DNA of 64,000 bases from Minisyncoccia bacterium (GCA_041740795.1 JBGSLH010000012.1:19146-83145), one strand, 5' to 3'; positions 47,491 through 62,383 are shown, counted from the stretch's first letter. The notes: generated by a model not told the origin, from the sequence alone. Made by a program: numbers and translations.

Positions 47491-47997
47491 TTACAAACTT
47501 AAGGAATTTTGGGCTTTTGTCAATGCTTGTTGTTCCTCTTCGGTAAGCATCACGAGTGCTTTAAAAGCTGTTATTTCCTTTGAATACACGTTCACTCGGT
47601 CGCGTGAATGGAGTGTGGACATGATCGCACCATTTCCTTTTTCATTAATAAGTGCGAGGGCAAAACTGTTTGTGCCTCCGGATTTCATCCCGTCGAATGC
47701 CTTGAACATCACGAGTCCGAGACCTCGTGGTGATGTTGTCACCTTGCGATCAAGAATTTTGAGATGGCTTGAGATTGTAATATTCTGCTCGTGATTTTTT
47801 TTGAGATAGTCATAAATCTCGACGAGCGATTTTTCGATATTATCCTTGTGTGCGGTTTTGACAAGTCTATTGAATCTGAAATTCAAATAGGCAATCCATC
47901 CAGTGAGTAGTAATATGATAGCAGTAGCTATTGCAAATATAATGACATTTTGTTCAAATACTCCTAACATACCAAAGATTATACAATATGAAGTCAT
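47491..47997 (-). CDS. DUF4446-like membrane protein
   Basis: N-terminal TM, coiled segment, and FKAFDGMKSGGTNSFALALINEKGNG core. Confidence 0.5.
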   Translation of the reverse strand: MTSYCIIFGMLGVFEQNVIIFAIATAIILLLTGWIAYLNFRFNRLVKTAHKDNIEKSLVEIYDYLKKNHEQNITISSHLKILDRKVTTSPRGLGLVMFKAFDGMKSGGTNSFALALINEKGNGAIMSTLHSRDRVNVYSKEITAFKALVMLTEEEQQALTKAQNSLSL

Positions 47998-49196
47998 TTT
48001 TAAATAATTTTATTAACACCAAAAAAGTTCATCTCGATTTTGCTGCCACAACCCCGGTCGCGCCCGAGGTGCTTGAATCCATGAAACCGTATTGGAGCGA
48101 AGATTTTTATAATCCCTCTGCAAGTTATGCTGCAGGTCAGAATATCAAAAAAATAATCAAGCGCGCGCGTGTAGATATTGCAAAATATCTACAGGTCAAG
48201 GAAAACGAAGTTCTATTCACACAAGGAGGAACCGAGTCGATCAATCTCGCACTGATTGGACTGGTACAACATGCGCTTAGGACTCTCGATTTTACTCCGC
48301 ACGTTCTCGTTTCTAGCATCGAACATCCTGCAGTGAGTGAATGCATCAAGTATATAAAGACTCTTGGAGTCGACGTCGAATACATACCGGTTCTTTCGAA
48401 AGGAATTGTTGATGTGCAGGCTTTTGAAAAAATGATCAACGAGCGTACAATCCTTGTTTCTGTAATTGGAGCATCGAACGAAACCGGAGTTATCCAACCA
48501 ATGCATCGGATTGCGAGTGTGGTAAAAAAATTCAAGAACGCGCATCAACGGATATTCGGACACTATCCGTTCGTGCACAGCGATGTAAGTCAACTTGTAC
48601 TCACGCATGATGTTTCGGTTTCAAAACTCGGAGTCGACATGCTTACGATTGACGGTTCCAAGATATACGCACCCAAGATGTCTGGAATACTCCTCAAAAA
48701 ACAATACGTCGAGATCGAACCATTGATGTATGGAGGAGGACAGGAATTCGGATTACGTTCTGGTACTGAGTCTGTCTCGAACATCGTCGCGTTGGATACA
48801 GCTCTCAAACTTATTCAAAAGCAAAGAGAAAAAGATAGTGAACATTTCAAAAAATTGAAAGAATTTTTTATACTCCAACTTTCTTCATCTTTGATTCCAT
48901 ATTCTATAAATGGAGAAGGAGAAATACTGCCTCACATTCTCAATATATGCATTCCAAAATTGAATAGCGACTTTGCAGTAATCCAACTCGACGAATACGG
49001 ATTGCAATGTGCCGCAATGACATCTTGTGCCGGTTCAAAAGGGATTCTCAAATCCGAAGTTCTGACTGCGATGCATAAGGAAGATTGTGCAGGGTCGTCA
49101 CTTCGATTTTCCTTTGGTCGATCAACGACGCTCCGTGACATAAAAAAAGCCATCGTGATACTCCGTAAAGCGTGCAAAGCCCAGAAAGTGGTCTAG
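47988..49196 (+). CDS. Cysteine desulfurase (class V aminotransferase, NifS/IscS-like)
   Basis: HLDFAATTPV, PLP-lysine region DGSKIYAPK, and a Cys loop TSCAGS. Confidence 0.85.
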   Translation: MKSFLNNFINTKKVHLDFAATTPVAPEVLESMKPYWSEDFYNPSASYAAGQNIKKIIKRARVDIAKYLQVKENEVLFTQGGTESINLALIGLVQHALRTLDFTPHVLVSSIEHPAVSECIKYIKTLGVDVEYIPVLSKGIVDVQAFEKMINERTILVSVIGASNETGVIQPMHRIASVVKKFKNAHQRIFGHYPFVHSDVSQLVLTHDVSVSKLGVDMLTIDGSKIYAPKMSGILLKKQYVEIEPLMYGGGQEFGLRSGTESVSNIVALDTALKLIQKQREKDSEHFKKLKEFFILQLSSSLIPYSINGEGEILPHILNICIPKLNSDFAVIQLDEYGLQCAAMTSCAGSKGILKSEVLTAMHKEDCAGSSLRFSFGRSTTLRDIKKAIVILRKACKAQKVV

Positions 49197-49223
49197 AAAA
49201 GAAAATTGGGATACAATACTGCT

Positions 49224-50036
49224 ATGGTTTTGAACACGCAACAAATCATTCTTCTGTGTCTACTCGTCAGTTTTGTAACCTCAATTGCTACAGGTATTAC
49301 TGTCGTGTCTCTCCTTCAGCAGACGCCAGAGCCCGTGACACAGACGATCAACCGAGTAATTGAGCGAACTGTCGAATCTGCCACTCAGCCTGTCGAAAAT
49401 ATTAAGAATTTCATCATACAACAGCCTTCAACCGGAACCAAAGACGTTGTGACTGTTGTCGTGAACCAAGAAGATCAGACGATCAATGCAGTAGCCAAAA
49501 ACGAGAATAGCATTGCACGAATCTATCTCAATACCAAAAGTCAGGAATTTGTAACGATCGGACTTGTGCTCAATACTGCTGGAGATATATTGGTCGATAA
49601 AAGGACAATTGATCGACGTGGCACATATGTAGCGACATATGGTTCCAAAAAATTCCTCGTCAAGTATGTTTCGGGTTCAGAGACTTATGACTTTATAAAA
49701 CTAAAGATCCAAGGAGAAAATCCAAATGACTTCGTTCCCGCGACACTTGCGGATTCAAACGGACTTAAACTCGCACAAAGTGTGATCTCATTGTCTGGAA
49801 CACAATCAACAAGCATTGGTGTTGGGGAGATCGTAAGCCTCAACAAGACCAAAGATGGTGCGCTCGCATCTATTTCGACCTCCGTGAACCCTCAGAATGT
49901 TCTCAATGGAAGCGTGCTGCTCAATCTGCAAGGTGCGGTCATTGGAATCAAACTTTATACAAGTGAAGATCGCACAATATTTTTTCCGATAAACAACCTC
50001 AAGACGCAGATCGACCCACCTCCTGCTGCTCCTTGA
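49224..50036 (+). CDS. Membrane-anchored trypsin/HtrA-like domain protein, catalytic His not evident
   Basis: DFIKLKI (Asp box-like) and NGSVLLNLQGAVIGI (Ser box-like), but ILVDKRTI where TNxHV is expected. TACAAT box 6 nt before the ATG at 49224. Confidence 0.45.
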   Translation: MVLNTQQIILLCLLVSFVTSIATGITVVSLLQQTPEPVTQTINRVIERTVESATQPVENIKNFIIQQPSTGTKDVVTVVVNQEDQTINAVAKNENSIARIYLNTKSQEFVTIGLVLNTAGDILVDKRTIDRRGTYVATYGSKKFLVKYVSGSETYDFIKLKIQGENPNDFVPATLADSNGLKLAQSVISLSGTQSTSIGVGEIVSLNKTKDGALASISTSVNPQNVLNGSVLLNLQGAVIGIKLYTSEDRTIFFPINNLKTQIDPPPAAP

Positions 50037-50083
50037 TTTTTTATCAAAATATTGTAGAATAAAACAATTAACGACACATCTAT

Positions 50084-52771
50084 ATGCAACCATTCAAAAA
50101 TTTTACATCAAAAGCAAAGGAAGTTATCCGCCACGCGCATGAACTTGCAATAGAACGGGGACAGAACCACGTGAATCCAATCCACTTGCTTCTTGCGCTT
50201 CTTCTGCAAGAAGAAAGCCTTATCGGATCAATTGTTGAAAAACTCGAGATAGACATCGTGCTCCTCACCGACATGTTGCTTGAAGCGATCGATGTTCCTG
50301 ACACAGGACACACTCTGTCACCTTCGTATCAGGTATATCTTGCTCCCGAACTTGCACAGGCAATCGAATATTCAACCAAGATCGCAGCAACGCTCAAAGA
50401 CGAATTCGTTTCTACTGAGCATCTTTTTCTCGCATTATTTGAAGTACCAAGTCGTGCCAAGGACATGCTTGCAAAGTTCAAGATCACGCGCGACGATGTT
50501 GTGCATATTCTTTCTGAAATAAAAACTGGAAAGGCGAAGATGTCTGAAACGACAAAGACGATGAAATCGATTCGCAAGTACACCGTGAGTCTTACTCAAA
50601 AAGCACGAGAAAACAAAATCGATCCTGTAATAGGACGAGACAAGGAGATCAATCGAATTATCCAGATTCTTTCACGTCGAACTAAGAACAATCCAATTCT
50701 CATCGGAGAAGCAGGAGTCGGTAAGACTGCTATCGTCGAAGGTCTTGCAAATAGAATCGTGCAAGGTGACATTCCTGAATCTCTTAAGGACAAAGAACTC
50801 GTGTCACTGGATCTTGGTGCGCTTGTTGCAGGAACCAAATACCGTGGAGAGTTCGAAGATCGACTCAAGAAGATTCTCAAAGAAGTGACGCAAGCACAGG
50901 GTAAGATTATTCTTTTTATTGATGAGATCCATACACTCGCAGGAGCCGGAGCTTCGGAAGGTTCTCTCGATGCATCCAATATGCTCAAACCAGCTCTTGC
51001 TAGAGGAGAACTCAAGGCAATCGGTGCGACAACAATCAAGGAATACCAGAAGTATATCGAAAAAGACGCGGCGCTTACCCGAAGGTTTCAGCCAGTTACT
51101 GTTGCTGAACCAAGCATTGAAGACGCAACTGCAATTCTACGAGGTATAAAAGAAAAATACGAGCTCTATCATGGAGTACGAATTACTGATGATGCAATCG
51201 TTTCTGCTGTACAACTTTCTTCACGGTATATTACGGACCGATTCCTTCCTGACAAGGCAGTTGACCTTATCGACGAGGCTTCTTCTACGCTCAAGATCTC
51301 ACTTGAGAACATGCCAGAAGAACTCGAAGATGGACGACGAAAAATCATGCGATACGAAATCGAACGTGAGGCTCTTACTAACGAAGAAAAACCGACAAGT
51401 ATACAAAAATCTCGACTCACCAAGATTGAAAAAGAAATCGCAGATCTTAAGGAAGGAATCCGTGAGCTTGATCTCAAGTGGCAGAATGAAAAGGAAGCTA
51501 TTTCAAATATAAAAGTATTCAAGGGTGATCTCGAATCATTACGAATTGAAGCTGAACAGGCCGAAGCTCGTGCCGACCTTTCTCGTGCTGCCGAAATCAG
51601 GTATGCAACTATTCCCATGATAGAAAAAGATTTGCGTTTACAAGAGAAGCGTCTCAAGGATCTGCAAGTTTCTCGAAAGATTCTTCGAGAAGAGGTGACC
51701 GAAGAGGACATCGCATCAATTGTTGCACGTTGGACTGGAATCCCTGTTGAACGGATGCTTGAAGAAGAGGCAAGCAAGCTTGCACGCATGGAAAAGGAAC
51801 TCAAGAGGCGAATCATTGGACAAGATAATGCTGTACGTAAGGTTGCAAATGCAATCAAACGTTCACGAGCAGGAATCTCAGATCCTGATAAGCCGATTGG
51901 ATCGTTCATGTTCCTCGGACCAACCGGTGTAGGTAAGACAGAACTTACAAAAGCTCTCGCCGACTATCTCTTTGACGATGACAAAGCACTCGTGCGAGTC
52001 GACATGTCAGAGTTCATGGAAAAACATTCTGTTTCAAAACTGATAGGATCTCCTCCTGGATATGTTGGACATGACGAAGGAAGCACATTTACAGATAAAA
52101 TCAGACATCGACCGTATGCTGTAGTACTTTTTGATGAAATTGAAAAGGCTCACCCCGAAGTGTTCAATGTGTTACTCCAGGTGCTCGACAACGGAAGACT
52201 TACGGACTCAAAGGGACGAATGGTCAACTTCAAGAACACTGTAATCATCATGACTTCAAATATCGGAGCGGAACACATCGACAAGATGGAGACTATTGGA
52301 TTTGCGTCCGACAAGTCTACTAAGACGCAGTATGAAGAAACCAAAGTGAATGTCGAAAAGGCACTCAAGGATCATTTCCGTCCGGAATTTTTGAACCGAC
52401 TCGATGATGTCATCATCTTTGATATTCTTTCTGAGAAGGCAATCGAAGAGATTGTGCATATTCAGATCGAACGAGTAGGATTACGACTTCTCGAAAAACA
52501 GATCAAGATCAAACTCGCCAAGTCTGTACTCACGTTTCTTGCAAAGGAAGGATACAATCCTCATTACGGAGCACGTCCACTCAAGCGTGTGATTCAGGAT
52601 CGAATTCTCAATCCTCTTGCACAACTTATCATTGCAAAAGGTCTCGGAGTTGGAAGTACGGTAACAGTTTCTGTCAAAAACGGAGGATTTGCGTTTGATG
52701 TTGCAGGCAAAGGCAAGAAGGGGAGCCTGATGTATAAGGAAAAAGATATTACTGAAGAAGCATTGGTGTAG
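50084..52771 (+). CDS. clpB: ATP-dependent chaperone ClpB
   Basis: Clp N-terminal repeats, two AAA+ modules ([16 protein letters not shown]) and a middle coiled-coil domain. Confidence 0.95.
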
Positions 52772-52803
52772 GGAGGCTTTTGGTAATTAGCCATTGGCAA
52801 AAG

Positions 52804-52833
52804 AAAAAGGGACGGCCGAAGGCCGTCCCTTTT
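52804..52833. terminator. Bidirectional terminator
   Basis: AAAAAGGGACGGCC-GAA-GGCCGTCCCTTTT. Confidence 0.7.
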
Positions 52834-52834
52834 G

Positions 52835-52869
52835 TCTAACTGCTAAATGCCAACAGCTAACCGCTATTT
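52835..52869 (-). repeat. Heptad repeat 3' of a stop codon
   Basis: Plus strand TCTAACT GCTAAAT GCCAACA GCTAACC GCTATTT. A mirrored GCCAATG GCTAATT copy lies at 52784-52800, after the clpB stop. Confidence 0.7.
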
Positions 52870-53103
52870 ATTCACCAACGCTGATCCTGCTGCAAAAGAG
52901 GCAATCCCTACAACGAATGATCCTATGATAAAGCAGATGACGATATCAAGCTTGAGATAAATTGCACACATGAGTGCGATGAAGAACATGATTCCTGCAA
53001 GCAGGAATACGATCCCTCCGATCGAAAGTAAAAAACCGATAAAAGACTTTTTGTCTGCTGTTAATGCATTTGTAACTTGTGTTGAATTTGTTTGTGGTTC
53101 CAT
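52864..53103 (-). CDS. Hypothetical small membrane protein
   Basis: 79 aa with 2-3 hydrophobic helices. Confidence 0.45.
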   Translation of the reverse strand: MEPQTNSTQVTNALTADKKSFIGFLLSIGGIVFLLAGIMFFIALMCAIYLKLDIVICFIIGSFVVGIASFAAGSALVNK

Positions 53104-53210
53104 GCGATTTATTATAGCACGCGTGGTTTACTGGTCACGACCTTTTGTCCAGGAATCATTTTAGCTGAGCTTGTAATATAAGGTATTTTCGATTATTATG
53201 TCTGATACAT

Positions 53211-53293
53211 GCGTAGATGGTAGAGCGGTCAATTACAAGGGACTGTAAATCCCTCGCCTTCGGGCTACGTGGGTTCGAATCCCTCTCTGCGCA
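53211..53293 (+). tRNA. tRNA-Tyr (GUA)
   Basis: Acceptor GCGTAGA/TCTGCGC, anticodon loop CTGTAAA, long variable arm, T-loop TTCGAAT (one U-U in the T stem). Confidence 0.8.
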
Positions 53294-53297
53294 CATA

Positions 53298-53340
53298 GAA
53301 AATAAGGAGAGCAAGACAATGTCTTGCTCTCCTTATTTTC
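53298..53340. terminator. 20-bp perfect hairpin after tRNA-Tyr
   Basis: GAAAATAAGGAGAGCAAGAC-AAT-GTCTTGCTCTCCTTATTTTC. Confidence 0.6.
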
Positions 53341-53413
53341 TTGCTCAGAGAGGGATTCTAAAGTCGGAGGTCCAGTCCCTGTATTTACAAAGCAAATCTG
53401 GGATGACCGAGAC

Positions 53414-53465
53414 GGGTTCGCGAGTACGTATGAGCGAAGCGAATTAGTAACTCGTGAACGAATCC
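53414..53465 (+). other. Conserved GAGC-GAA-GCGA hairpin, copy B
   Basis: The same 19-mer TATGAGCGAAGCGAATTAG as copy A, on a different basal stem (CGAGTAC/GTAACTCG, extended by GGGTTCG/CGAATCC). Confidence 0.65.
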
Positions 53466-53492
53466 TTTTTTCCTTGTGCTATAATCATTCCA

Positions 53493-54110
53493 ATGACGCC
53501 CAAAACTAAAAACTATATTTTTCTTGCGAGCCTGTCACTTGCTATTTTTACGGTCACATACACAGTACTCCTGATCATTGGACTTGTACCACGTCAGTTT
53601 GAGGGAACACAGAACGTTTTTCAAGTCATTCCTTTGGACAAAACATCTGAACCAGTTTCTACTGAAGACACAGACAAAAACCTCATTCCTCAACACGTTG
53701 AAATTCCAAAAATCGGTGTGGACTCAGTAATCCAGTTTCCTTCAAATATCGACGTGGCAACACTCGATACTGCACTTGCCAAGGGTGCTGTATATTATCC
53801 TGGATCTGGAACACTCCAGTCTGGCAACCTTTTTCTTTTTGGACACAGTACGAACTGGAAAGTTGTGAACAATCAGGCATACAAGACCTTCAATGATCTC
53901 GAAAAACTAGTTAAGGGTGACAAGATTATTCTTACAAGTGGTGACAAAAAATACACGTACACAGTGACAACAGTGCGACGTGCTGCTGATGATGACGTAC
54001 TTGTGGAATTTAATAAGGGAGATCGGATGATTACTATCTCTACTTGTGATACGTTCGGGAAAAAGCAGGATAGATGGGTGGTCGAGGCTGAATTTGAGGA
54101 AGTCGGGTAG
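53493..54110 (+). CDS. Sortase family transpeptidase
   Basis: N-terminal TM, LFLFGHS (His), ITISTCD (Cys), QDRWVV (Arg). TGcTATAAT box 7 nt before the ATG at 53493. Confidence 0.8.
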   Translation: MTPKTKNYIFLASLSLAIFTVTYTVLLIIGLVPRQFEGTQNVFQVIPLDKTSEPVSTEDTDKNLIPQHVEIPKIGVDSVIQFPSNIDVATLDTALAKGAVYYPGSGTLQSGNLFLFGHSTNWKVVNNQAYKTFNDLEKLVKGDKIILTSGDKKYTYTVTTVRRAADDDVLVEFNKGDRMITISTCDTFGKKQDRWVVEAEFEEVG

Positions 54111-54130
54111 GTAACGATAGTCACCGAGGG

Positions 54131-54162
54131 ATACTTGACTTTTACACATAATATGGTAGTAT
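54131..54162 (+). promoter_or_regulatory. Sigma70-type promoter (TTGACT-N16-TGgTAGTAT) with an ACATAATATG element
   Basis: ATACTTGACTTTTACACATAATATGGTAGTAT, near-identical to the promoter at 44688-44720 (- strand). Confidence 0.5.
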
Positions 54163-54298
54163 TTCTCTTCAGAAAGGCAAACCACATTCCTTACAAACTT
54201 GCATAACGTGTTACTGCCAGAAGATGGCCTCGTTCAGTTGCTTCATATACGTATGACTCAACTCAAGTTTTAATGGATAAAAGGTTTGAATTTGTACC

Positions 54299-55228
54299 AT
54301 GATAACAGATCCAGGCAATAATGATGACACTCAAGGTAATGATGACCTGAACGACCTTCAGGACAATCTTGCTCGCGACAGGGCACTGAAAAAGCAAGCT
54401 GAGGAAAGAAAAAAGAAGGTGGCGAGAAATCGTTTCATCGGTTACTTCCTCGGCCTTGTGCTGGCCTGTATCACTGTCTTCTTCCTCCTTTGGGCTATCA
54501 ATCGAGACAATTCGCCAAAACCCGTATCAGTATCGCCCCCGGGTTTCTCCGCGGAAGAACTGCAAGACGAACTCAAAAAGGCGCTTGCAGTAAAGGAGGA
54601 GGAGTTCAAAAAACTTCTTGCCAAGAATGGAGAAGATCAGGCAAGTTTGCAGCGCAGTCTCAACGATTACAAGGAGGAGCTAAGCATGCAGCAAAAGCAA
54701 GCAGAGGCAGCCCTCCAAGCTCGTTTCAAGGCGGAAACGGAACTCGCTGTAGCGAACAAGAAGGCCGAAGATGCCAGATTGTTAGCGGAGGCAGAAGCCA
54801 AGAAAACCAAAGATGCTGAAGCCGCGAAAGCCAAGGAAGCAGAAGTCGCGAAAGTGGCTTTGGCCTCAAAAACTGCCGAAGCCAAAGAGGTTGATGAAGA
54901 GAAGAAAATCGACATCAATCGTATGAAAGATGAGGTGTTCGATGCTTCAAAAAACTTCAACCCTAACGGACAATTCGACGTCGCCGACGAGGATGAGTTG
55001 AAGAAGGTCTGGGCTGGCTGGATTGAGTACAAGGGAAAGTATTTTCCTCTCATTACCAATCCTTCTGGCAACCCATCTCCCACCAAGGGTGATGTTGCGC
55101 CGGAATTCCTTGCTCCCAAAAATGCCAAATGGACCTACGAGACTATCATCTTGAACAATCCACGTGGCAGTGGGTCATACACGACCAAGGGGTGGGCTTC
55201 GAACATGAAGCCTGTCACGAAGAAGTGA
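54299..55228 (+). CDS. Hypothetical N-terminally anchored coiled-coil (A/E/K-rich) protein
   Basis: Acidic N-terminus, one TM, a long AEAKK-type coiled coil and a C-terminal globular part. Confidence 0.55.
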   Translation: MITDPGNNDDTQGNDDLNDLQDNLARDRALKKQAEERKKKVARNRFIGYFLGLVLACITVFFLLWAINRDNSPKPVSVSPPGFSAEELQDELKKALAVKEEEFKKLLAKNGEDQASLQRSLNDYKEELSMQQKQAEAALQARFKAETELAVANKKAEDARLLAEAEAKKTKDAEAAKAKEAEVAKVALASKTAEAKEVDEEKKIDINRMKDEVFDASKNFNPNGQFDVADEDELKKVWAGWIEYKGKYFPLITNPSGNPSPTKGDVAPEFLAPKNAKWTYETIILNNPRGSGSYTTKGWASNMKPVTKK

Positions 55229-55349
55229 TACGGTTAAGGATTTTTCTTAAAAATCCATTAAGACGCCCCTGGCAACACGGGCGTCTTTTTTAATTGACAT
55301 TTTCTATATATGTGATATACTATTTTAGTTAGAAAAATAATATAAAAGT

Positions 55350-56756
55350 ATGAAAAAATTAATTATAAATTTAAGCTTTATCTTCATTGCATTTCCTGCA
55401 GTGACATTTGCTAGTGGCGGATGGTACGGGGACGATTATTCTTATGACAGCAACAGCTGGTACGGAGATGACTATTCATACGGCAACAACAGCTGGTACG
55501 GAGATAACTACTCCTATAATTCGTCACCATGGTACGGGGATGATTATGGATATGACAACGGAAGCTGGTACGGAGATGACTATTCATACGGCAGCAACAG
55601 TTGGTACGGAGATAACTACTCCTATAATTCGTCACCATGGTACGGGGATAATTATTCATACGATAATTCCTATTACGCAAGTAACAACAACTACAATTAC
55701 AACAATTACGACTACAGTAATTACGACTACTCAAACTATGGGTACAACGACTATGATTACGGGTATAACGACTACGATTATGGGTATGATAATTACGACT
55801 ATGATTATAATGATCAGTATGCGTACAACTACGATTATGGATATAACTACGATTATAACCAGGATTATTACTACGACTATGGATATGATTACAACGAATG
55901 TACAACTTGTTCATGTCAGAACAATTGTTATAACGATGATGATGATTGTCGTTCAAACTGTACACCTCCTCCAACATACGACGATCTCGACCTTGTCTGT
56001 GTAGTATCTGATCGGAACGTAGAAGAAGGGGAATCTGTAACATTTACTGCAGAAGCTGACGGCGGAAGTGGTTCATACACCTACCGATGGTCTGGAGATG
56101 TTTCTGGTTCAAGTCGAATCATCAACACTCGATTTAACTATGAAGGAACATACTATGGAACTGTCAGAGTGACAGATTCACGTGGTAAGACCGCTACTGC
56201 AAACTGTTCATCAGTTGTCGTAGAAGAAGAGGAGGACGAGGACTTTGACGCAGTATGTAAGGTTTCAGATTCTTCAATCGAAGAAGGAGACCGAGTTACA
56301 TTTACTGCAGACGTTGACGGTGGAGACAGTCCATTCGATTACGATTGGTCTGGAGACGCTGACAGTTCAAGTCGAAGTTTTAGTAAGACGTTCAGTCGAT
56401 CTGGAACATACGAAGTTGACCTTAAGGTGATTGACGACGAAGGTCGTGTTGCTCGGGATACATGTACTGTTCGAGTAAAGGATGAAGATGAGGATAATGA
56501 CAACGATCGAGATATTAATGTCGTTGCCCGAACCAATCCTTCAAACAACGATGGTAACTTCGCTTCTGTCGACTCAGTATATCTGAACCAGGTTCCATAC
56601 ACTGGACCTGAAGACGTAGCAAAGGGAATTGCCTTTGCTGTCGGAATTCTCGCTTGGAGTATCGGTGGAGCGCTTATCATCCGAAACAAGATGGATAAGA
56701 AAGCAGTTTCAAACCGAATCGAAGCATTCAAGAGTGCGAACAAGACAAACGTCTAA
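55350..56756 (+). CDS. Secreted surface protein: D/Y/N-rich repeats, two PKD-like domains and a VPYTG-type sorting signal
   Basis: Signal peptide, 8 copies of SWYGD[DN]YSY, a YDYxNYDY tract, two 80-aa repeats VTFTA..GG...Y.WSGD (PKD-like), then VPYTG followed by a TM and RNKMDKK. Confidence 0.75.
   Translation: MKKLIINLSFIFIAFPAVTFASGGWYGDDYSYDSNSWYGDDYSYGNNSWYGDNYSYNSSPWYGDDYGYDNGSWYGDDYSYGSNSWYGDNYSYNSSPWYGDNYSYDNSYYASNNNYNYNNYDYSNYDYSNYGYNDYDYGYNDYDYGYDNYDYDYNDQYAYNYDYGYNYDYNQDYYYDYGYDYNECTTCSCQNNCYNDDDDCRSNCTPPPTYDDLDLVCVVSDRNVEEGESVTFTAEADGGSGSYTYRWSGDVSGSSRIINTRFNYEGTYYGTVRVTDSRGKTATANCSSVVVEEEEDEDFDAVCKVSDSSIEEGDRVTFTADVDGGDSPFDYDWSGDADSSSRSFSKTFSRSGTYEVDLKVIDDEGRVARDTCTVRVKDEDEDNDNDRDINVVARTNPSNNDGNFASVDSVYLNQVPYTGPEDVAKGIAFAVGILAWSIGGALIIRNKMDKKAVSNRIEAFKSANKTNV
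55413..55896 (+). repeat. Coding low-complexity tandem repeats (36-bp unit, 108-bp higher order)
   Basis: Reiterated AGCTGGTACGGAGATGACTATTCATAC-type units, then TAYGAYTAY-rich sequence. Confidence 0.85.
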
Positions 56757-56773
56757 ATTCTAAATTAGCAAAC

Positions 56774-56800
56774 GGCGCGCCCCTATGGGGCGCGCCTTTT
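56774..56800. terminator. Bidirectional terminator
   Basis: GGCGCGCCCC-TAT-GGGGCGCGCC followed by TTTT. Confidence 0.7.
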
Positions 56801-56809
56801 GTTTTGTTT

Positions 56810-58543
56810 CTACAACAGACCTTTGAAGAGTTCAATCACTTCCTCGACAGGCTTCTGTCCAAGCGGACCTTCGTCACGACTTTCCAGCGTGAACTTCTGA
56901 GCTTCAATGTCTTTATCGCCAATTATAACAAAGTAGGGAACTCGATCATCCTTGGCACGCTTTACCTTTTTTCCAAAATTATCCTTTGAATCAAGAAGTA
57001 CTGATCTGATGTCCAATTTTTTGAAATCGTCATGCAGACACTGAGCGGATTTGAGATGGGCATCTCCGATCGGAATGATTGCGACTTGTACAGGAGCCAT
57101 CCAGAAAGGGAAGTTGCCGGCGTAGTGCTCAATGATGATTGATAGGAATCTCTCAAGTGATCCTGCAATTGCTCGGTGAATCATCACAGGGGTCTTTTTA
57201 AATCCGTCTTTGTCTGTGTATTCAAGCTCAAAACGCTTTGGCATATTGAAATCAAGCTGCACTGTTCCGAGTTGTCGTTCTCGACCTATTGCATCTTTGA
57301 ATATGAAGTCGATTTTCGGACCATAGAACGCCGCTTCTCCTGGAATAATTTTGTACGGTAGATTTTCTTCCTTCGCAATTTCTTCAAGTGCCGCTTCTGC
57401 AATTGCCCAAGTCTCCTTGTCTCCAAGATATTTTTCTGGAGTTGCAGGATCTGAGAATGAGAGTGATACCCAATAGTTGCCTTCGTACATCAATCCGAGA
57501 AGTTCGTAAAACTGTTTGATGATTGAAACGATATTCCGGATCTCTTCCTTAACTTGTTCCGGTGTACAGAACACATGCCCATCATCCTGGGTAATGCTTC
57601 GAACACGTCCGAGTCCCATAAGTTCTCCGGATTGCTCGTCTCGATAAACTACACCTGGCTCTGTATATCGAACTGGAAGCTCTTTGTAGCTCCGTGCCTT
57701 CGATGCAAAGATCTGGGTGTGATGTGGGCAGTTCATCGGTTTCATCACAAAATCAGTTTCCTGACCCTTCACGTGGAAAAGCTCGTCCTTGAATTTGTCC
57801 CAGTGTCCAGACTTCATATAGAGTTCGGGTTTTGTGATGTGGGGAATCCATACTTCCTGATAGTCGAATGCACTTTGGAGTTGTTGAATTTTTGAAATGA
57901 TCGCTTTTCGCATCGCGGTTCCTTTTGGAGTAAAGAGGGGAAGTCCCGGACCTACCAATTCTGAAAAAGTGAAAAGATCAAGTTCCTTTCCGAGCTTGCG
58001 ATGGTCGCGTTCCTTGGCCTGTTCCATTCGTACGAGATATTCATCAAGTTCGACTTTATTTTCAAATGCGAGTCCGTAGATTCTTGTAAGCATTGAATTT
58101 TTTTCGTCTCCTCTCCAATACGCACCTGCTACTCGGTCAAGTTTGAAACTTTCGGGATCAATCTCGTTCATGTGTTCAACATGTCCACCACGACAGAGGT
58201 CGATGAATTCTCCAGATTGATAGAACGTAATATCTTCGTTTCGAGAAATTATTTCCTCGATAAGTTCGAGCTTGTATTTGTTGTCTTTGAAAAATTCACG
58301 CGCCTCATCAGGAGTTTTTGAAATTGCTGTAAAACCATCCCAAGTCGGGAGGATTTTTTTCATCTCTTTTTGAATTCGTGCAAGATCATGATCTGTAACT
58401 TTCTGTGCTCCAAAGTCACAGTCATAATAGAATCCGTTATCCGTAGCAGGACCGATAGTGAGTTTGGCTTCGGGATAGATACTTATAACTGCTTGTGCAA
58501 GCAGGTGGGCGAGTGAGTGCCGTTTTTCTTGTATTGTGGACAT
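56810..58543 (-). CDS. thrS: Threonyl-tRNA synthetase (short form lacking the N-terminal TGS region)
   Basis: Starts at the HSLAHLLAQAV editing-domain motif. Class II core and a C-terminal anticodon-binding domain. Confidence 0.9.
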   Translation of the reverse strand: MSTIQEKRHSLAHLLAQAVISIYPEAKLTIGPATDNGFYYDCDFGAQKVTDHDLARIQKEMKKILPTWDGFTAISKTPDEAREFFKDNKYKLELIEEIISRNEDITFYQSGEFIDLCRGGHVEHMNEIDPESFKLDRVAGAYWRGDEKNSMLTRIYGLAFENKVELDEYLVRMEQAKERDHRKLGKELDLFTFSELVGPGLPLFTPKGTAMRKAIISKIQQLQSAFDYQEVWIPHITKPELYMKSGHWDKFKDELFHVKGQETDFVMKPMNCPHHTQIFASKARSYKELPVRYTEPGVVYRDEQSGELMGLGRVRSITQDDGHVFCTPEQVKEEIRNIVSIIKQFYELLGLMYEGNYWVSLSFSDPATPEKYLGDKETWAIAEAALEEIAKEENLPYKIIPGEAAFYGPKIDFIFKDAIGRERQLGTVQLDFNMPKRFELEYTDKDGFKKTPVMIHRAIAGSLERFLSIIIEHYAGNFPFWMAPVQVAIIPIGDAHLKSAQCLHDDFKKLDIRSVLLDSKDNFGKKVKRAKDDRVPYFVIIGDKDIEAQKFTLESRDEGPLGQKPVEEVIELFKGLL

Positions 58544-58583
58544 GTCTTGTATAGTAGCAAAATAAAGACTTTTGTCATCCTAC

Positions 58584-58626
58584 TACAACGCCCAGAGCGT
58601 GACGTCGTCACGCTCTGGGCGTTGTA
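58584..58626. repeat. 20-bp perfect hairpin in the thrS / mazF-like divergent region
   Basis: TACAACGCCCAGAGCGTGAC-GTC-GTCACGCTCTGGGCGTTGTA, preceded by GTCATCC. Confidence 0.7.
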
Positions 58627-58698
58627 AAATAAATAGGGACAATAAAGATATAGAATTTCTTTATAGAGATTTGATAAAAAATCACTAGGATATATACA

Positions 58699-59082
58699 AT
58701 GAAGGATTTCGATCATTGGAATGTTTTGAAGAAGAATATTCAAAATGATATAAAAATAAAATATTGTAAACAGCGTGAAATTTGGTGGACATCAATAGGT
58801 TTGAATATTGGATCAGAAGAGGACGGAAAAAATAATTTATACGAAAGGCCTGTGTTAATCTTAAAAGTTTTTAGTCAGGATTTGATTCGAGTTCTTCCTT
58901 TGTCTAGTCGTCTAAAGAACGATGAACATAATGTTATTATAAAATATGAAAAAACAGTCTGTACAGCACTTCTTTCTCAGATGAAATCTGTCAGTAAAAA
59001 AAGACTGACTAGAAAGATTGGAAGACTTTCCAAATATGAATTCGAAGTAATTGTTAATAAAATTAGAACGTTCATTGTGTGA
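58699..59082 (+). CDS. PemK/MazF family toxin-like protein
   Basis: REIWWTSIGLNIGSEEDGKNNLYERPVLILKVF...VLPLSS pattern. No antitoxin ORF seen on either side. Confidence 0.65.
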   Translation: MKDFDHWNVLKKNIQNDIKIKYCKQREIWWTSIGLNIGSEEDGKNNLYERPVLILKVFSQDLIRVLPLSSRLKNDEHNVIIKYEKTVCTALLSQMKSVSKKRLTRKIGRLSKYEFEVIVNKIRTFIV

Positions 59083-59193
59083 TGTAAAACGAAACCCCAC
59101 TGGTTACAGTGGGGAATCTCGGAGCCCTAAGGCGTTGTATATACAATATTACCAAAGTTTATTGTGTAGTCAATCAGGAAATTTAGAATTCCT

Positions 59194-62100
59194 TTATTCC
59201 AACTTCTTGATCTTATCAACCAAGATACTCTTCTCCCCATTCCTCACCGAGATCGTCCCTTTGACCGCGATGCATCCATCACCTTCTATAATATCTTTGT
59301 ACTTCTCATACACTTTAGGAAAACAGACACATTCAAGCGAATCGGTGTAATCCTTTATCTTAAGAAATGCCATAGGCGCGCCCTTTTTGGTGAGGATCGG
59401 TTTGCATTCTTCGATTATTCCTGCAACAACAAGAGTAACACCATCTTTACTTTCTGCTTTTATTTTTTCTACCGTGTGTCCATTTGTTAATAAGTCCTTG
59501 AATTGATCGAGAGGATTCCCTGTAACGTAGAGTCCGAGCAGTTCCTTTTCCCATCCAAGCATTTCTTGTTTGGATATTGTAGGTCCTGGTTCGAGATGTA
59601 GATGAGAGATTTCGATACTGCTTGAAGTGAAGAGAGAGTCTTGGTCTGCATCTGCCTTGGCAATTTCCTTGTTGAACTTGAGAAGATTTTCGAAGTTGTG
59701 TAGAAGCAGAGCGCGGTCCGGATTGAGACTGTCGAATGCACCGGTCTTGATAAGTGCTTCTAGAGATTTTTTATTCAAATTCCGATCAACCACGCGTGTA
59801 AAAAAATCTTCAAGATCGACGAACTTGCCGTTCTCCTTTCGTTCCTTGATGATGGCATCGGCGATTCCTTGTCCAAAGTTTTTGATTGTTGTTAACCCGA
59901 AGCGAATAATCTCTTTGCCACGTTCGCCTGGTACCACACCGAAGTCTGCGAACGATTCGTTGATATCTGGTGGAAGCACAGTGATGCCCATTCGTTCGCA
60001 CTCGTGTACCATGGTCGCGATTTTGTCGACATCTCCTGAATCGGCAGTAAGTACAGATGCCATGTAGAGTACGGGATAGTTGGCCTTGAGATATGAAGTC
60101 AGGTAGGCAACTCGTCCATAAGCAGCAGCGTGAGCCTTGTTGAATCCGTATGCAGCAAACGTCTCGATCATGTCCCAGAGTTTGTGTGTATTGTCTTCCG
60201 AAAATCCTCCGACTTCAATACATCCCTTGATGAACTTTTCTTTTTGTTTCACCATTTCTTCCGGAATCTTCTTACCTACAGCCTTACGGAACTTGTCGGC
60301 TTCTCCCCAAGAATATCCTGCGAGGTTTACTGCAATCAAAAGAATATCATCTTGATAAATTAGAATTCCATATGTCGTCTCGAGATACGGTTTTAGTTTT
60401 GCATCAAAGTACACAACTTTCTCAGGATTGTGTTTTCGCTCGATATAATCAGGAATAAAGGCGAGAGGACCAGGTCGATAGAGTGCCACCATCGCATTGA
60501 TGTCATGGATATTCGAAGGTTTCAACTCTTTGAGGAATCGTGTCATGCCGTCTCCGTTGAGTTGGAAGGTTGCTTCGGTTTCACCGCGTGCCAACATGTC
60601 GAATGTATTTTTATTATCCAAAGGAATTTCATCAACATCAATTTTTTCTCCATACAATTTGTCTGCCATCTTTACTGTTTGAGCTATGATACTGAGGTTT
60701 TTTAGTCCAAGGAAGTCGAATTTGAGGAGACCTGCTTCTTCAACAGAGTGCATATCGTATTGTGTGATAATTTTTCCTTCACCCTTTGGATCCATCTGCA
60801 CAGGTACAAAATCAGTCATGGTTGTAGGTGAGATAACTACTCCTGCAGCATGAACACCAATGTGTCGTGCACATCCCTCAATCTTTCGGGCCATATCAAT
60901 AATTACTTTTGAATCAGCATCAGTCTTGTACAATTCGGCCAATTCAGGAGTGTCATCAAGTGCACGCTTGATGGTCATCGGGAATCCTTGAGCTCCGAGT
61001 GGAATAAGTTTTGCAATCGCGTCTCCTTTTGCATAATCAAATCCCATAGCACGCGCGGTGTCTCGCACTGCACCTTTGGCAAGCATTTTTCCGAATGTTC
61101 CAATTTGAGCAACGTTGTGTGCTCCGTATGTACGACGAGCGTATTCGATCATGTCATCACGCCTATTATCGGCGAAGTCCATGTCAATATCAGGAGGTGA
61201 AGGACGCTCAGGGTTGAGGAATCGTTCAAAGGGAAGTCCGTATTCGATTGGATCGACCGTGGTGATTCCTACAAGATATGAGACGAGTGATCCGGCCGCA
61301 GACCCTCGAGTGTTGGACTGGATACCTGCTTCTTTGGCATATCTGATAAGGTCTCCCACTACAAGAAAATATGGCGAGTATCCTTTGGTCTCGATAACAT
61401 CAAGTTCATACTCGACTCGTTTGAGAAGACTTTCTGTAGGTTCCATTTTTCTTCTTTCGATTCCAGCAAAGGCTTTTTCTCGGAGAACATCTTTGGCAAG
61501 TCTTCCTTCAAGGTCAATCGCAGGGAACACCCAGTTACCAAGTTCGAGCTCAATATTACATTTGTCTATAACTTCTTGAATGTTGTCGAGCGCTTCGGGA
61601 ATATCCTTGAAGTACTGATTGGCCTCTTTTTGTGAAATAAAAGAAAAATTCTCCTCGTCATCAACTCCTGCATCTCCACCGAAAGATGATTGTACCGACA
61701 TGAGTGTTCTACGAGCATCACGATCTTCAGGTTTGATGTAGTACACATCAGAGGCTGCGACTAGTTTTGTTCCAGTTTCTTTTGCAAATTCTTTTATGAG
61801 ACTCATCCGTCCTTCATGACCTTCGATTTCTGGATGATGAGTTATTTCGATATAGAAATCATCACCAAAAGTTTCTTTGTAGTACGCAAGAATTTCAAGG
61901 GCTCGTTCCTTGTTACTCATTGCTAATGCATTTACGATTTCACTATTGAATGAAGGGGAGATGCAAATGAGACCCTCGTGATGTTTTGTAATGAGTTCAC
62001 GATCTATTCGAGGCTTATAATAAAATCCATCAAGGTGGGAATCTGTAACAATTTGAATGAGGTTTTTATATCCAACTTCATTTTTTACCAATAAAATAAG

Positions 62101-62364
62101 TCTGGTTCGACGTGCATCCATTCGTTCCTTGTCCTTGCGAGTTCGTGCTGCGACATACGCATCGATTCCAATAATAGGCTTAATATTATTTTCAAGACAT
62201 TTTTTATAAAAATCTATCGCTCCGTATAAGTTTCCGTTATCAGTAAGTGCAAGTGCCTTTTGACCGTCAGCAACTGCTGCAGCGATCAGATCCTTTATCT
62301 TTGGAAGGGCAGTCAAAAGACTATAATGGCTGTGCACGTGCAAATGGGAAAAGGGTTTGCTCAT
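59194..62364 (-). CDS. dnaE: DNA polymerase III alpha subunit
   Basis: PHP domain FSHLHVHSHYSLL, polymerase core and OB fold. Start trimmed to MSKPF, 7 nt after TATAAT. Confidence 0.95.
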   Translation of the reverse strand: MSKPFSHLHVHSHYSLLTALPKIKDLIAAAVADGQKALALTDNGNLYGAIDFYKKCLENNIKPIIGIDAYVAARTRKDKERMDARRTRLILLVKNEVGYKNLIQIVTDSHLDGFYYKPRIDRELITKHHEGLICISPSFNSEIVNALAMSNKERALEILAYYKETFGDDFYIEITHHPEIEGHEGRMSLIKEFAKETGTKLVAASDVYYIKPEDRDARRTLMSVQSSFGGDAGVDDEENFSFISQKEANQYFKDIPEALDNIQEVIDKCNIELELGNWVFPAIDLEGRLAKDVLREKAFAGIERRKMEPTESLLKRVEYELDVIETKGYSPYFLVVGDLIRYAKEAGIQSNTRGSAAGSLVSYLVGITTVDPIEYGLPFERFLNPERPSPPDIDMDFADNRRDDMIEYARRTYGAHNVAQIGTFGKMLAKGAVRDTARAMGFDYAKGDAIAKLIPLGAQGFPMTIKRALDDTPELAELYKTDADSKVIIDMARKIEGCARHIGVHAAGVVISPTTMTDFVPVQMDPKGEGKIITQYDMHSVEEAGLLKFDFLGLKNLSIIAQTVKMADKLYGEKIDVDEIPLDNKNTFDMLARGETEATFQLNGDGMTRFLKELKPSNIHDINAMVALYRPGPLAFIPDYIERKHNPEKVVYFDAKLKPYLETTYGILIYQDDILLIAVNLAGYSWGEADKFRKAVGKKIPEEMVKQKEKFIKGCIEVGGFSEDNTHKLWDMIETFAAYGFNKAHAAAYGRVAYLTSYLKANYPVLYMASVLTADSGDVDKIATMVHECERMGITVLPPDINESFADFGVVPGERGKEIIRFGLTTIKNFGQGIADAIIKERKENGKFVDLEDFFTRVVDRNLNKKSLEALIKTGAFDSLNPDRALLLHNFENLLKFNKEIAKADADQDSLFTSSSIEISHLHLEPGPTISKQEMLGWEKELLGLYVTGNPLDQFKDLLTNGHTVEKIKAESKDGVTLVVAGIIEECKPILTKKGAPMAFLKIKDYTDSLECVCFPKVYEKYKDIIEGDGCIAVKGTISVRNGEKSILVDKIKKLE

Positions 62365-62383
62365 ATCTGATATTATACACACT
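62365..62383. promoter_or_regulatory. 19-bp divergent region with overlapping -10 boxes for dnaE and rnhB
   Basis: Plus strand TATTAT at 62371-62376 and minus strand TATAAT at 62372-62377. Each lies 7 nt from its ATG. Confidence 0.5.

Follow-up and report, generated by a model that had tools for sequence, protein, structure and literature searches.

Which protein is served by the sortase encoded in a 64,000-nt stretch of DNA from a Minisyncoccia bacterium (GCA_041740795.1 JBGSLH010000012.1:19146-83145), and by what signal is that protein recognised? The whole stretch is called the window here, and positions are counted from its first letter. The candidate phyla radiation (CPR), or Patescibacteria, accounts for a large and mostly uncultured share of bacterial diversity; its members live attached to other cells, and the way they build their envelope is poorly known. 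A preliminary description of the locus, made from the sequence alone, proposed a membrane-anchored sortase, a secreted protein two genes downstream and, as the recognition motif of this dedicated pair, a C-terminal VPYTG. The analysis presented here indicates that the locus probably encodes the housekeeping sortase of the Parcubacteria/Paceibacteria, a CPR lineage, together with its principal substrate, and that classical sortase chemistry would be combined there with a lineage-specific, extended signal of the LPXTG type.

The sortase gene, a middle gene and the gene for a 468-aa protein are three open reading frames on the + strand, and the coordinates at which they were first described stand. 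The features on which the argument depends are as follows.

53493-54110, + strand: sortase, 205 aa, identified by its Pfam match (PF04203), catalytic triad and fold
53532-53588, + strand: predicted membrane anchor at the N-terminus of the sortase (residues 14-32), from hydrophobicity and charge
54299-55228, + strand: intervening gene, an open reading frame of 309 aa
55350-56756, + strand: predicted sortase substrate, 468 aa, from its open reading frame, PKD match, composition and topology
56577-56606, + strand: extended sorting motif, V410-Y-L-N-Q-V-P-Y-T-G419, with the predicted scissile bond between T418 and G419
56625-56681, + strand: transmembrane (TM) helix of the sorting signal, residues 426-444, with a mean Kyte-Doolittle value of 2.16 over 19 residues; it contains W-S
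56682-56753, + strand: cytoplasmic tail, 24 aa, with the basic patch RNKMDKK and then the conserved SNRIEAFKSANK

The enzyme is a genuine sortase. Its match to the Pfam Sortase family (MEROPS C60) scores 79.2 bits (cutoff 26.6, E 2.9e-22) and spans profile positions 1-123 of 125. The triad that had been picked out by eye, H118 (LFLFGHS), C185 (ITISTCD) and R194 (DRWVVEA), is invariant in 32 homologues with 46-100% identity, in which the three contexts take the forms F-x-F-G-H-S, T-I/L-S-T-C-D/N and R-W-V. The homologues are annotated as metagenome-assembled genomes of Candidatus Parcubacteria or Paceibacterota. Translation is taken to start at the ATG at 53493, which gives the 205-aa length of an identical database protein (P0001) and is also where the homologues start; an alternative in-frame GTG lies upstream, at 53454. 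Hydrophobicity and flank charge place the basic N-terminal flank inside and the catalytic domain outside, as in a type II membrane protein, so the membrane anchoring claimed at the outset holds as well. In the AlphaFold2 (AF2) model (mean predicted local distance difference test score, pLDDT, 78.3), an N-terminal helix at residues 3-29 is followed by the strand pattern of the sortase barrel, and four residues of the anchor region (F19, T22, L26 and P33) are invariant among the homologues.

Assignment of the enzyme to one of the sortase classes A-F was attempted and rejected. In a Foldseek search, more than 50 solved sortase chains matched the model with a probability of 1.0 (TM-scores 0.53-0.78, normalised to the target); the matches include sortases from classes A, C, D and E, with identities of 19-28%. 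The best of these structural matches was Listeria SrtA (5hu4, E 2e-10), and the best sequence match in the PDB was Clostridium perfringens SrtD (4d70, E 5.7e-13). Because structures of classes A, C, D and E match about equally, no class can be assigned from them. Among the NCBIfam class models the top match was class E, which remained below its cutoff (45 bits against 160), followed by class C (36.6 against 160), class D (35 against 165), class F (17.8 against 166) and class B (15.2 against 153.75); no class A model was reported. Even the generic sortase model TIGR01076 was narrowly missed (38.2 bits against 39.35). The enzyme is thus a sortase outside the defined classes.

The second half of the pair is the 468-aa protein, the C-terminus of which ends ...SVYLNQVPYTGPEDVAKGIAFAVGILAWSIGGALIIRNKMDKKAVSNRIEAFKSANKTNV. 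Its first 22 residues resemble a Sec signal peptide, in agreement with the proposal of a secreted protein at this position, and its C-terminal end has the tripartite layout of a PxTG motif, a hydrophobic helix and a basic patch. Six polar residues, the last of them Lys, separate VYLNQVPYTG from the helix. The net charge of the helix flanks is -1 on the motif side and +3 on the tail side; together with the signal peptide, these charges put the motif on the outer face and the tail inside. The arrangement that would have spoken against a sorting signal, a simple anchor with the motif on the cytoplasmic side, was therefore not found. An extended-signal peptide would be SVYLNQVPYTGPED, and the bare pentapeptide in its context is AAAAAVPYTGPED.

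How much of this C-terminal end is conserved was addressed by an exhaustive phmmer search with the last 67 residues of the substrate against 1.84 billion cluster representatives, which returned 82 proteins at E ≤0.001; all but one of them are matched at or near their C-terminal end. In the alignment of 77 of these representatives, which does not depend on any predefined motif pattern, L412, Q414, P416, T418, G419 and F460 are invariant, and S409, V410, Y417, K461 and N464 each recur in at least 90%. VPYTG is the pentapeptide in 62 representatives, IPYTG in 10 and LPYTG in three, while IPRTG and VPHTG occur once each. The window protein does not have a strict LPXTG pentapeptide, since Pro, Thr and Gly are kept and a first-position Leu is rare in the family. 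In a clade with more divergent sortases, the YL-x-Q context is kept and the pentapeptide is VPATG, VPDTG, VPSTG or LPETG. The consensus can be written as [VI] (P9)-[YF] (P8)-L (P7)-[SN] (P6)-Q (P5)-[VI] (P4)-P-[YA]-T/G, the slash marking the predicted cleavage site, and is placed 6-10 residues ahead of the helix across the substrates. It is followed by a conserved K before the helix, an F and the W-S within it, a basic patch and the tail I-x-x-F-K-x-x-N. A profile search of the same C-terminal domain in an index of 5.8 billion proteins gave one match; the word index and E-value scale of that search are unsuited to a domain of 67 aa.

This conservation suggests that the recognition element extends beyond VPYTG, to roughly [VI][YF]L[SN]Q[VI]P[YA]TG together with conserved residues of the helix and tail, and that the enzyme may read positions P9-P5 and parts of the helix and tail. 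The original proposal was right in seeing an altered motif, and too narrow in restricting it to five residues; nor is V or I at the first position without precedent. When the P2 residue (Y as opposed to A, D, S or E) was compared with the columns of the sortase alignment, several of the top columns mapped to the predicted beta6/beta7 loop or its immediate surroundings, a correlation that is inseparable from phylogeny as the 12 sequences without Y form one clade.

Two minor observations concern the helices. Both the sortase anchor (53532-53588) and the substrate helix (56625-56681) are unusually conserved for TM segments, and these helices may recognise each other within the membrane. One substrate homologue (L050:7024-8460) stops eight residues past YLSQVPYTG (…VPYTGIEDNLHTY, then the stop codon) and so has no TM helix; it is probably the product of a frameshift or an assembly error, or a decaying gene.

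If the signal belongs to the sortase, the two should be found together, and they are, whichever of them is used for the search. Starting from the sortase, with one genome per GTDB species, 72 loci with relatives at 33-73% identity were collected, of which 15 are uninformative because their downstream DNA is shorter than 3.1 kb; the other 57 have at least 3.4 kb. A gene encoding [VI][YFS]L[SNT]Q[VIL]P[YA..]TG and a TM helix is present in 51 of these 57 Paceibacteria loci, and one more has the motif in a truncated open reading frame. All 53 instances of the motif, the window included, are on the strand of the sortase, nearly all of them downstream of it. The remaining five loci have no substrate gene: the sortase lies between clpB and thrS/dnaE, with no gene inserted there. 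Starting from the motif, 80 loci were found on metagenome contigs, some of which are near-duplicates and not all independent. Upstream DNA is informative in 47: the sortase is immediately upstream on the same strand in 38 and nearby in another arrangement in five, and in four no sortase occurs within 4.8-8.6 kb. The pair with its extended tag is thus found again in roughly a hundred related loci from genomes and metagenomes, each with one sortase and usually one substrate gene, and full-length homologues of the substrate sit downstream of the sortase in related loci. These associations indicate that the pairing is not due to chance.

Some genomes have more than one protein with the signal. L105 and L113 are two such loci ~70 kb apart on one contig, and L043 contains two instances; with the sortase-free motif loci, these suggest that several proteins per genome can carry the signal, as would be expected of a true sorting signal. 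Other types of signal are all but missing. Within the window there is one sortase, and the only real gene combining a C-terminal xPx[TSA][GASN] with a hydrophobic stretch is the substrate. A census of all loci (~2 Mb, 1737 six-frame open reading frames of at least 150 aa) found 74 C-terminal xPxTG signals of the family type with TM helix and basic residues and one other, in a spurious antisense frame; no plain LPXTG substrate was seen in this related DNA near the sortase or motif loci.

The surroundings of the pair are those of a housekeeping gene. In the window, genes for an aminotransferase, a trypsin-like protease and ClpB precede tRNA-Tyr, the sortase and the substrate, and are followed by threonyl-tRNA synthetase (ThrRS) and DnaE on the opposite strand. 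The same order (class V aminotransferase, membrane-anchored trypsin-like protease, ClpB, sortase, then opposite-strand ThrRS and DnaE) is conserved between the window (47988-62382) and loci L024, L055 and L068. Among the 72 genome loci, ThrRS is a neighbour of the sortase in 36, DnaE in 28 and ClpB in 21. This conserved neighbourhood points to a vertically inherited core function rather than an island. The pair described as dedicated is a real pair as regards linkage, and the adjective is too strong, because of the housekeeping neighbourhood and because some genomes encode a second, remote protein with the signal.

From these results a mechanism of the classical kind can be proposed. The substrate would be exported by Sec via its N-terminal signal peptide; its C-terminal helix and basic tail would keep it in the membrane, with VYLNQVPYTG displayed next to the membrane on the outer face. 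The sortase would cut between Thr418 and Gly419 by means of His118, Cys185 and Arg194, with a thioacyl intermediate on Cys185, and the Tyr-rich ectodomain with its PKD domains would be passed to an amine of the envelope, most probably lipid II or a peptidoglycan stem peptide. The window encodes MurJ (E 1.1e-60), along with FtsZ and FtsA, so lipid II, the classical sortase acceptor, is expected to be available. Cleavage between Thr and Gly in a motif that does not begin with Leu has precedents among sortases, since the SrtB of C. difficile cuts (S/P)PXTG at this bond (PMC4155245) and pneumococcal pilins carry VPDTG (RrgC), IPQTG (RrgB) and also YPRTG (PMC5640630). The mechanism would be as expected for sortases unless the membrane stub left by cleavage proves to be functional.

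Comparison with known systems shows where the pair agrees and where it departs. As in the class A enzymes SrtA of Staphylococcus aureus, Streptococcus pyogenes and Listeria monocytogenes, a type II anchor, a His-Cys-Arg triad and a beta-barrel fold are present, and the substrate has the signal peptide, C-terminal x-P-x-T-G, hydrophobic helix and basic residues of the LPXTG system, at a similarly housekeeping locus. It differs from class A in its low identity to solved sortases and lack of a class A model match, in having V or I instead of Leu, in the conservation of P9-P5, in a helix and 24-aa tail with invariant residues, and in not being matched by the LPXTG-anchor models. Class D (C. perfringens SrtD 4D70) and class E (actinobacterial SrtE, LAXTG) are closest at the sequence level, and class E also offers a housekeeping sortase with a variant motif; however, the scores here are far below both cutoffs, the motif has Pro where class E substrates have Ala, and the lineage is CPR rather than Firmicutes or Actinobacteria. 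C. difficile SrtB is likewise the only sortase of its genome and uses a non-Leu x-P-x-T-G motif, cut between T and G, on adhesin-like surface substrates (PMC4155245), but the class B model gives only 15 bits here, and an extended upstream consensus or a conserved tail is not described for SrtB. The substrates of the class C pilin sortases of pneumococci likewise have V or I first in the pentapeptide and are built of Ig-like domains (PMC5640630), whereas here there is no pilin motif, no operon of several pilins and no class C membership.

Within CPR, a sortase family (fam000526) was found in more than half of the genomes by Meheust et al. 2019, as presence or absence only (PMC6744442), and the window sortase presumably belongs to this family or to a sister family. 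Passing mention has been made of 'sortase motifs' on surface proteins of CPR (PMC5220378). Neither the literature searched, which contains such passing mentions only, nor the curated libraries of hidden Markov models (HMMs) were found to describe the motif that is recognised, the conserved substrate or the linkage of the genes. The Pam pilus of CPR does without a sortase, being assembled by a chaperone and donor-strand system (bioRxiv 10.64898/2026.03.03.709456), and the PamR model NF058578 scores 20.9 bits against a cutoff of 300, reflecting local Ig-like similarity only. What was already known is that CPR has sortases and that V or I can stand first in pneumococcal pilins; what is new is the extended, near-invariant context, the conserved TM helix and tail, a CPR-specific sortase clade outside classes A-F and the conserved core-genome locus. 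With a defined signal ([VI][YF]LxQ[VI]PYTG, TM helix, FKxxN tail), one could predict from genomes which surface proteins Paceibacteria anchor, and annotation pipelines would gain a model they now lack. The signal also points to a probable major surface adhesin with its own promoter-like site at a housekeeping locus, and a sortase and tag with unusually long recognition could serve as an orthogonal pair for protein engineering.

The part of the signal that fits the classical picture least well is the tail. After the helix, tail lengths are bimodal: 15-64 aa in one group, which includes the window protein and clusters at 24-32 aa, and about 270-330 aa in the other. Long tails, preceded by the motif YLxQ[VI]PYTG and the TM helix, are found in more distant Paceibacteria, at loci L023, L026, L029, L036, L040, L042, L046, L047, L051, L054, L059-L063 (for example, the protein L061:11271-12191), L067, L069 and L071, and also at L130, L137, L140, L142, L143, L146, L150 and L152. 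They end in a conserved helical domain of ~200 aa with the signatures YPREDGWLxLD, PLFIEWxVRGEDK, RARLEG and VDERYDSAYTSVRLAL. This domain has no Pfam match, its AF2 model is helical (pLDDT 79), and a homologue search with it gave four matches only. A likeness to the clamp-loader lid or collar in a Foldseek search of the PDB was rejected as too poor (E 9e-5, TM-score 0.47, root-mean-square deviation 11 A). Long conserved cytoplasmic extensions raise the question of what becomes of the stub after sortase cleavage: either the stub is functional once it has been cut off, or these proteins are not cleaved.

Several observations weigh against a housekeeping sortase working on an extended LPXTG-type signal. 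The 24-aa tail of the substrate is longer and far more conserved than in classical signals, and the conserved region of ~300 aa that follows motif and helix on the cytoplasmic side in distant relatives is atypical for sortase substrates. Neither TIGR01167 and PF00746 nor any other sorting-signal model matched the C-terminal 70-75 aa when this part was searched alone against Pfam and NCBIfam at E up to 10. As the sortase reaches none of the class cutoffs, its specificity cannot be taken over from homologues. The census of signals covers the vicinity of sortase or motif loci only, and the cleavage between Thr and Gly, the acceptor and a reading of the residues upstream of the pentapeptide by the enzyme are inferred. 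Three other explanations compete with this one. To one of them, in which the stub is the purpose of cleavage, we would give a small chance. The sortase would then leave an active membrane product, from Gly419 to the end with its FKxxN tail (or the ~200-aa domain in relatives), in the manner of a site-1 protease, coupling display to cytoplasmic signalling, assembly or quality control. In streptococci, a membrane two-component system senses the C-peptide that is cut off adhesins, so the idea is not without parallel, and F460, K461 and N464 are indeed conserved as strongly as the cleavage motif; the two tail-length classes, the well-conserved domain shared by the long tails and its folding in the model (pLDDT 79) are consistent with it too. 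However, neither a partner nor a DNA-binding or enzymatic domain came to light, the fold comparison of the domain gave nothing better than the poor clamp-loader matches, the window protein has only a short tail, and the tail could be just a stronger retention signal. Were the stub functional, the sortase would attach the ectodomain and at the same time set free or activate a stub in the membrane, which would report on or organise display from inside, a sortase-gated transmembrane processing rather than a simple anchor.

The other two alternatives concern an uncleaved protein and a pilus. The substrate might be a permanent membrane surface protein, its juxtamembrane sequence serving folding, oligomerisation or another enzyme while the sortase acts elsewhere. 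The long conserved cytoplasmic regions of relatives suggest that the intact transmembrane protein matters, the LPXTG models do not match, and in the five related genomes mentioned above the sortase stays at the locus with no substrate gene beside it. We nevertheless regard an uncleaved anchor as quite improbable, given that P, T and G are invariant at the exact spacing of a sortase signal, on the outer face and 6-10 residues ahead of the helix, that linkage to the sortase is strong in both search directions, and that no alternative type of substrate was seen in the census of loci. Polymerisation into a pilus, in which a class C-like sortase would join copies of the substrate into a fibre via a lysine of the next subunit, is very unlikely: the pilin motif [WYF]PK[NDST] occurs in one of 117 distinct substrates, loci have a single sortase and usually a single substrate gene, the class C model is far from its cutoff, and the neighbourhood is not that of a pilus islet. 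In its favour are the relatives with SpaA_2 and Cna_B, domains typical of Gram-positive pilins, the V/I-P-x-T-G typical of pneumococcal pilins (PMC5640630) and the class C structures among the fold matches. A housekeeping sortase that cleaves an extended signal on its principal substrate is thus the reading we consider probable.

The domain make-up of the substrate fits a role at the cell surface. Behind the signal peptide, residues 24-210 (55419-55979) consist of 29% Tyr, 18% Asp and 17% Asn in repeats of the WYGDDYSY type, and the DNA of this region shows 36- and 108-bp tandem repeats. A Cys-rich stretch follows, then two PKD domains at about residues 213-376 (Pfam, E 2e-15) and an acidic linker. 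Adhesion and metal binding are possible roles of the Tyr-rich region; relatives also have Tyr-rich repeats right behind the signal peptide. PKD domains are present in the ectodomains of 57 of the 77 cluster representatives, with Ig-like or SprB-type repeats in others, and more distant relatives have SpaA_2, Cna_B, DUF11 and He_PIG. These are typical modules of surface adhesins, and the substrate is probably a major surface adhesin.

The gene between sortase and substrate was considered as a conserved third component and rejected, having no homologue among the 72 sortase loci except a weak match in L012. Its 309-aa product is N-terminally anchored, as had been described: it is oriented N-in, with a TM segment at residues 46-64, an Ala/Glu/Lys-rich, coiled-coil-like segment and a small C-terminal domain, but it is not a conserved partner. 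No Pfam family was matched, and the only similarity was a sub-threshold low-complexity match to TolA. In other loci this slot is often occupied by unrelated bitopic proteins that fall into small unrelated groups.

Further features around the pair are listed below.

53211-53294: tRNA-Tyr, just upstream of the sortase
55294-55321, + strand: promoter-like site, TTGACA, 16 nt and TATACT with an upstream TG, 11 of 12 consensus matches (pattern match only)
56774-56796, + strand: strong terminator-like hairpin, 10 G-C pairs and a T run, which closes the cluster

The promoter-like site lies 29 nt 5' of the start codon of the substrate, and the convergent thrS ends at 56810, beyond the terminator-like hairpin. 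Another hairpin follows tRNA-Tyr at ~53291-53340. An open reading frame at 53217-53447 (MVERSITRDCKSLAFGLRGFESLSAH...) was rejected as a gene, being a translation across tRNA-Tyr, and in another genome the same artefact accounts for the long N-terminal extension of the database protein P0007. Ahead of the sortase, an extended -10 element, TGcTATAAT (53477-53495 region, pattern match only), ends 7 nt before the ATG, and no Shine-Dalgarno sequence is visible there; the sortase mRNA may be leaderless. At the other end of the window, and unrelated to the sortase, 253-2295 encodes a helicase (ResIII and Helicase_C) fused to four DUF4379 treble-clef zinc-finger repeats.

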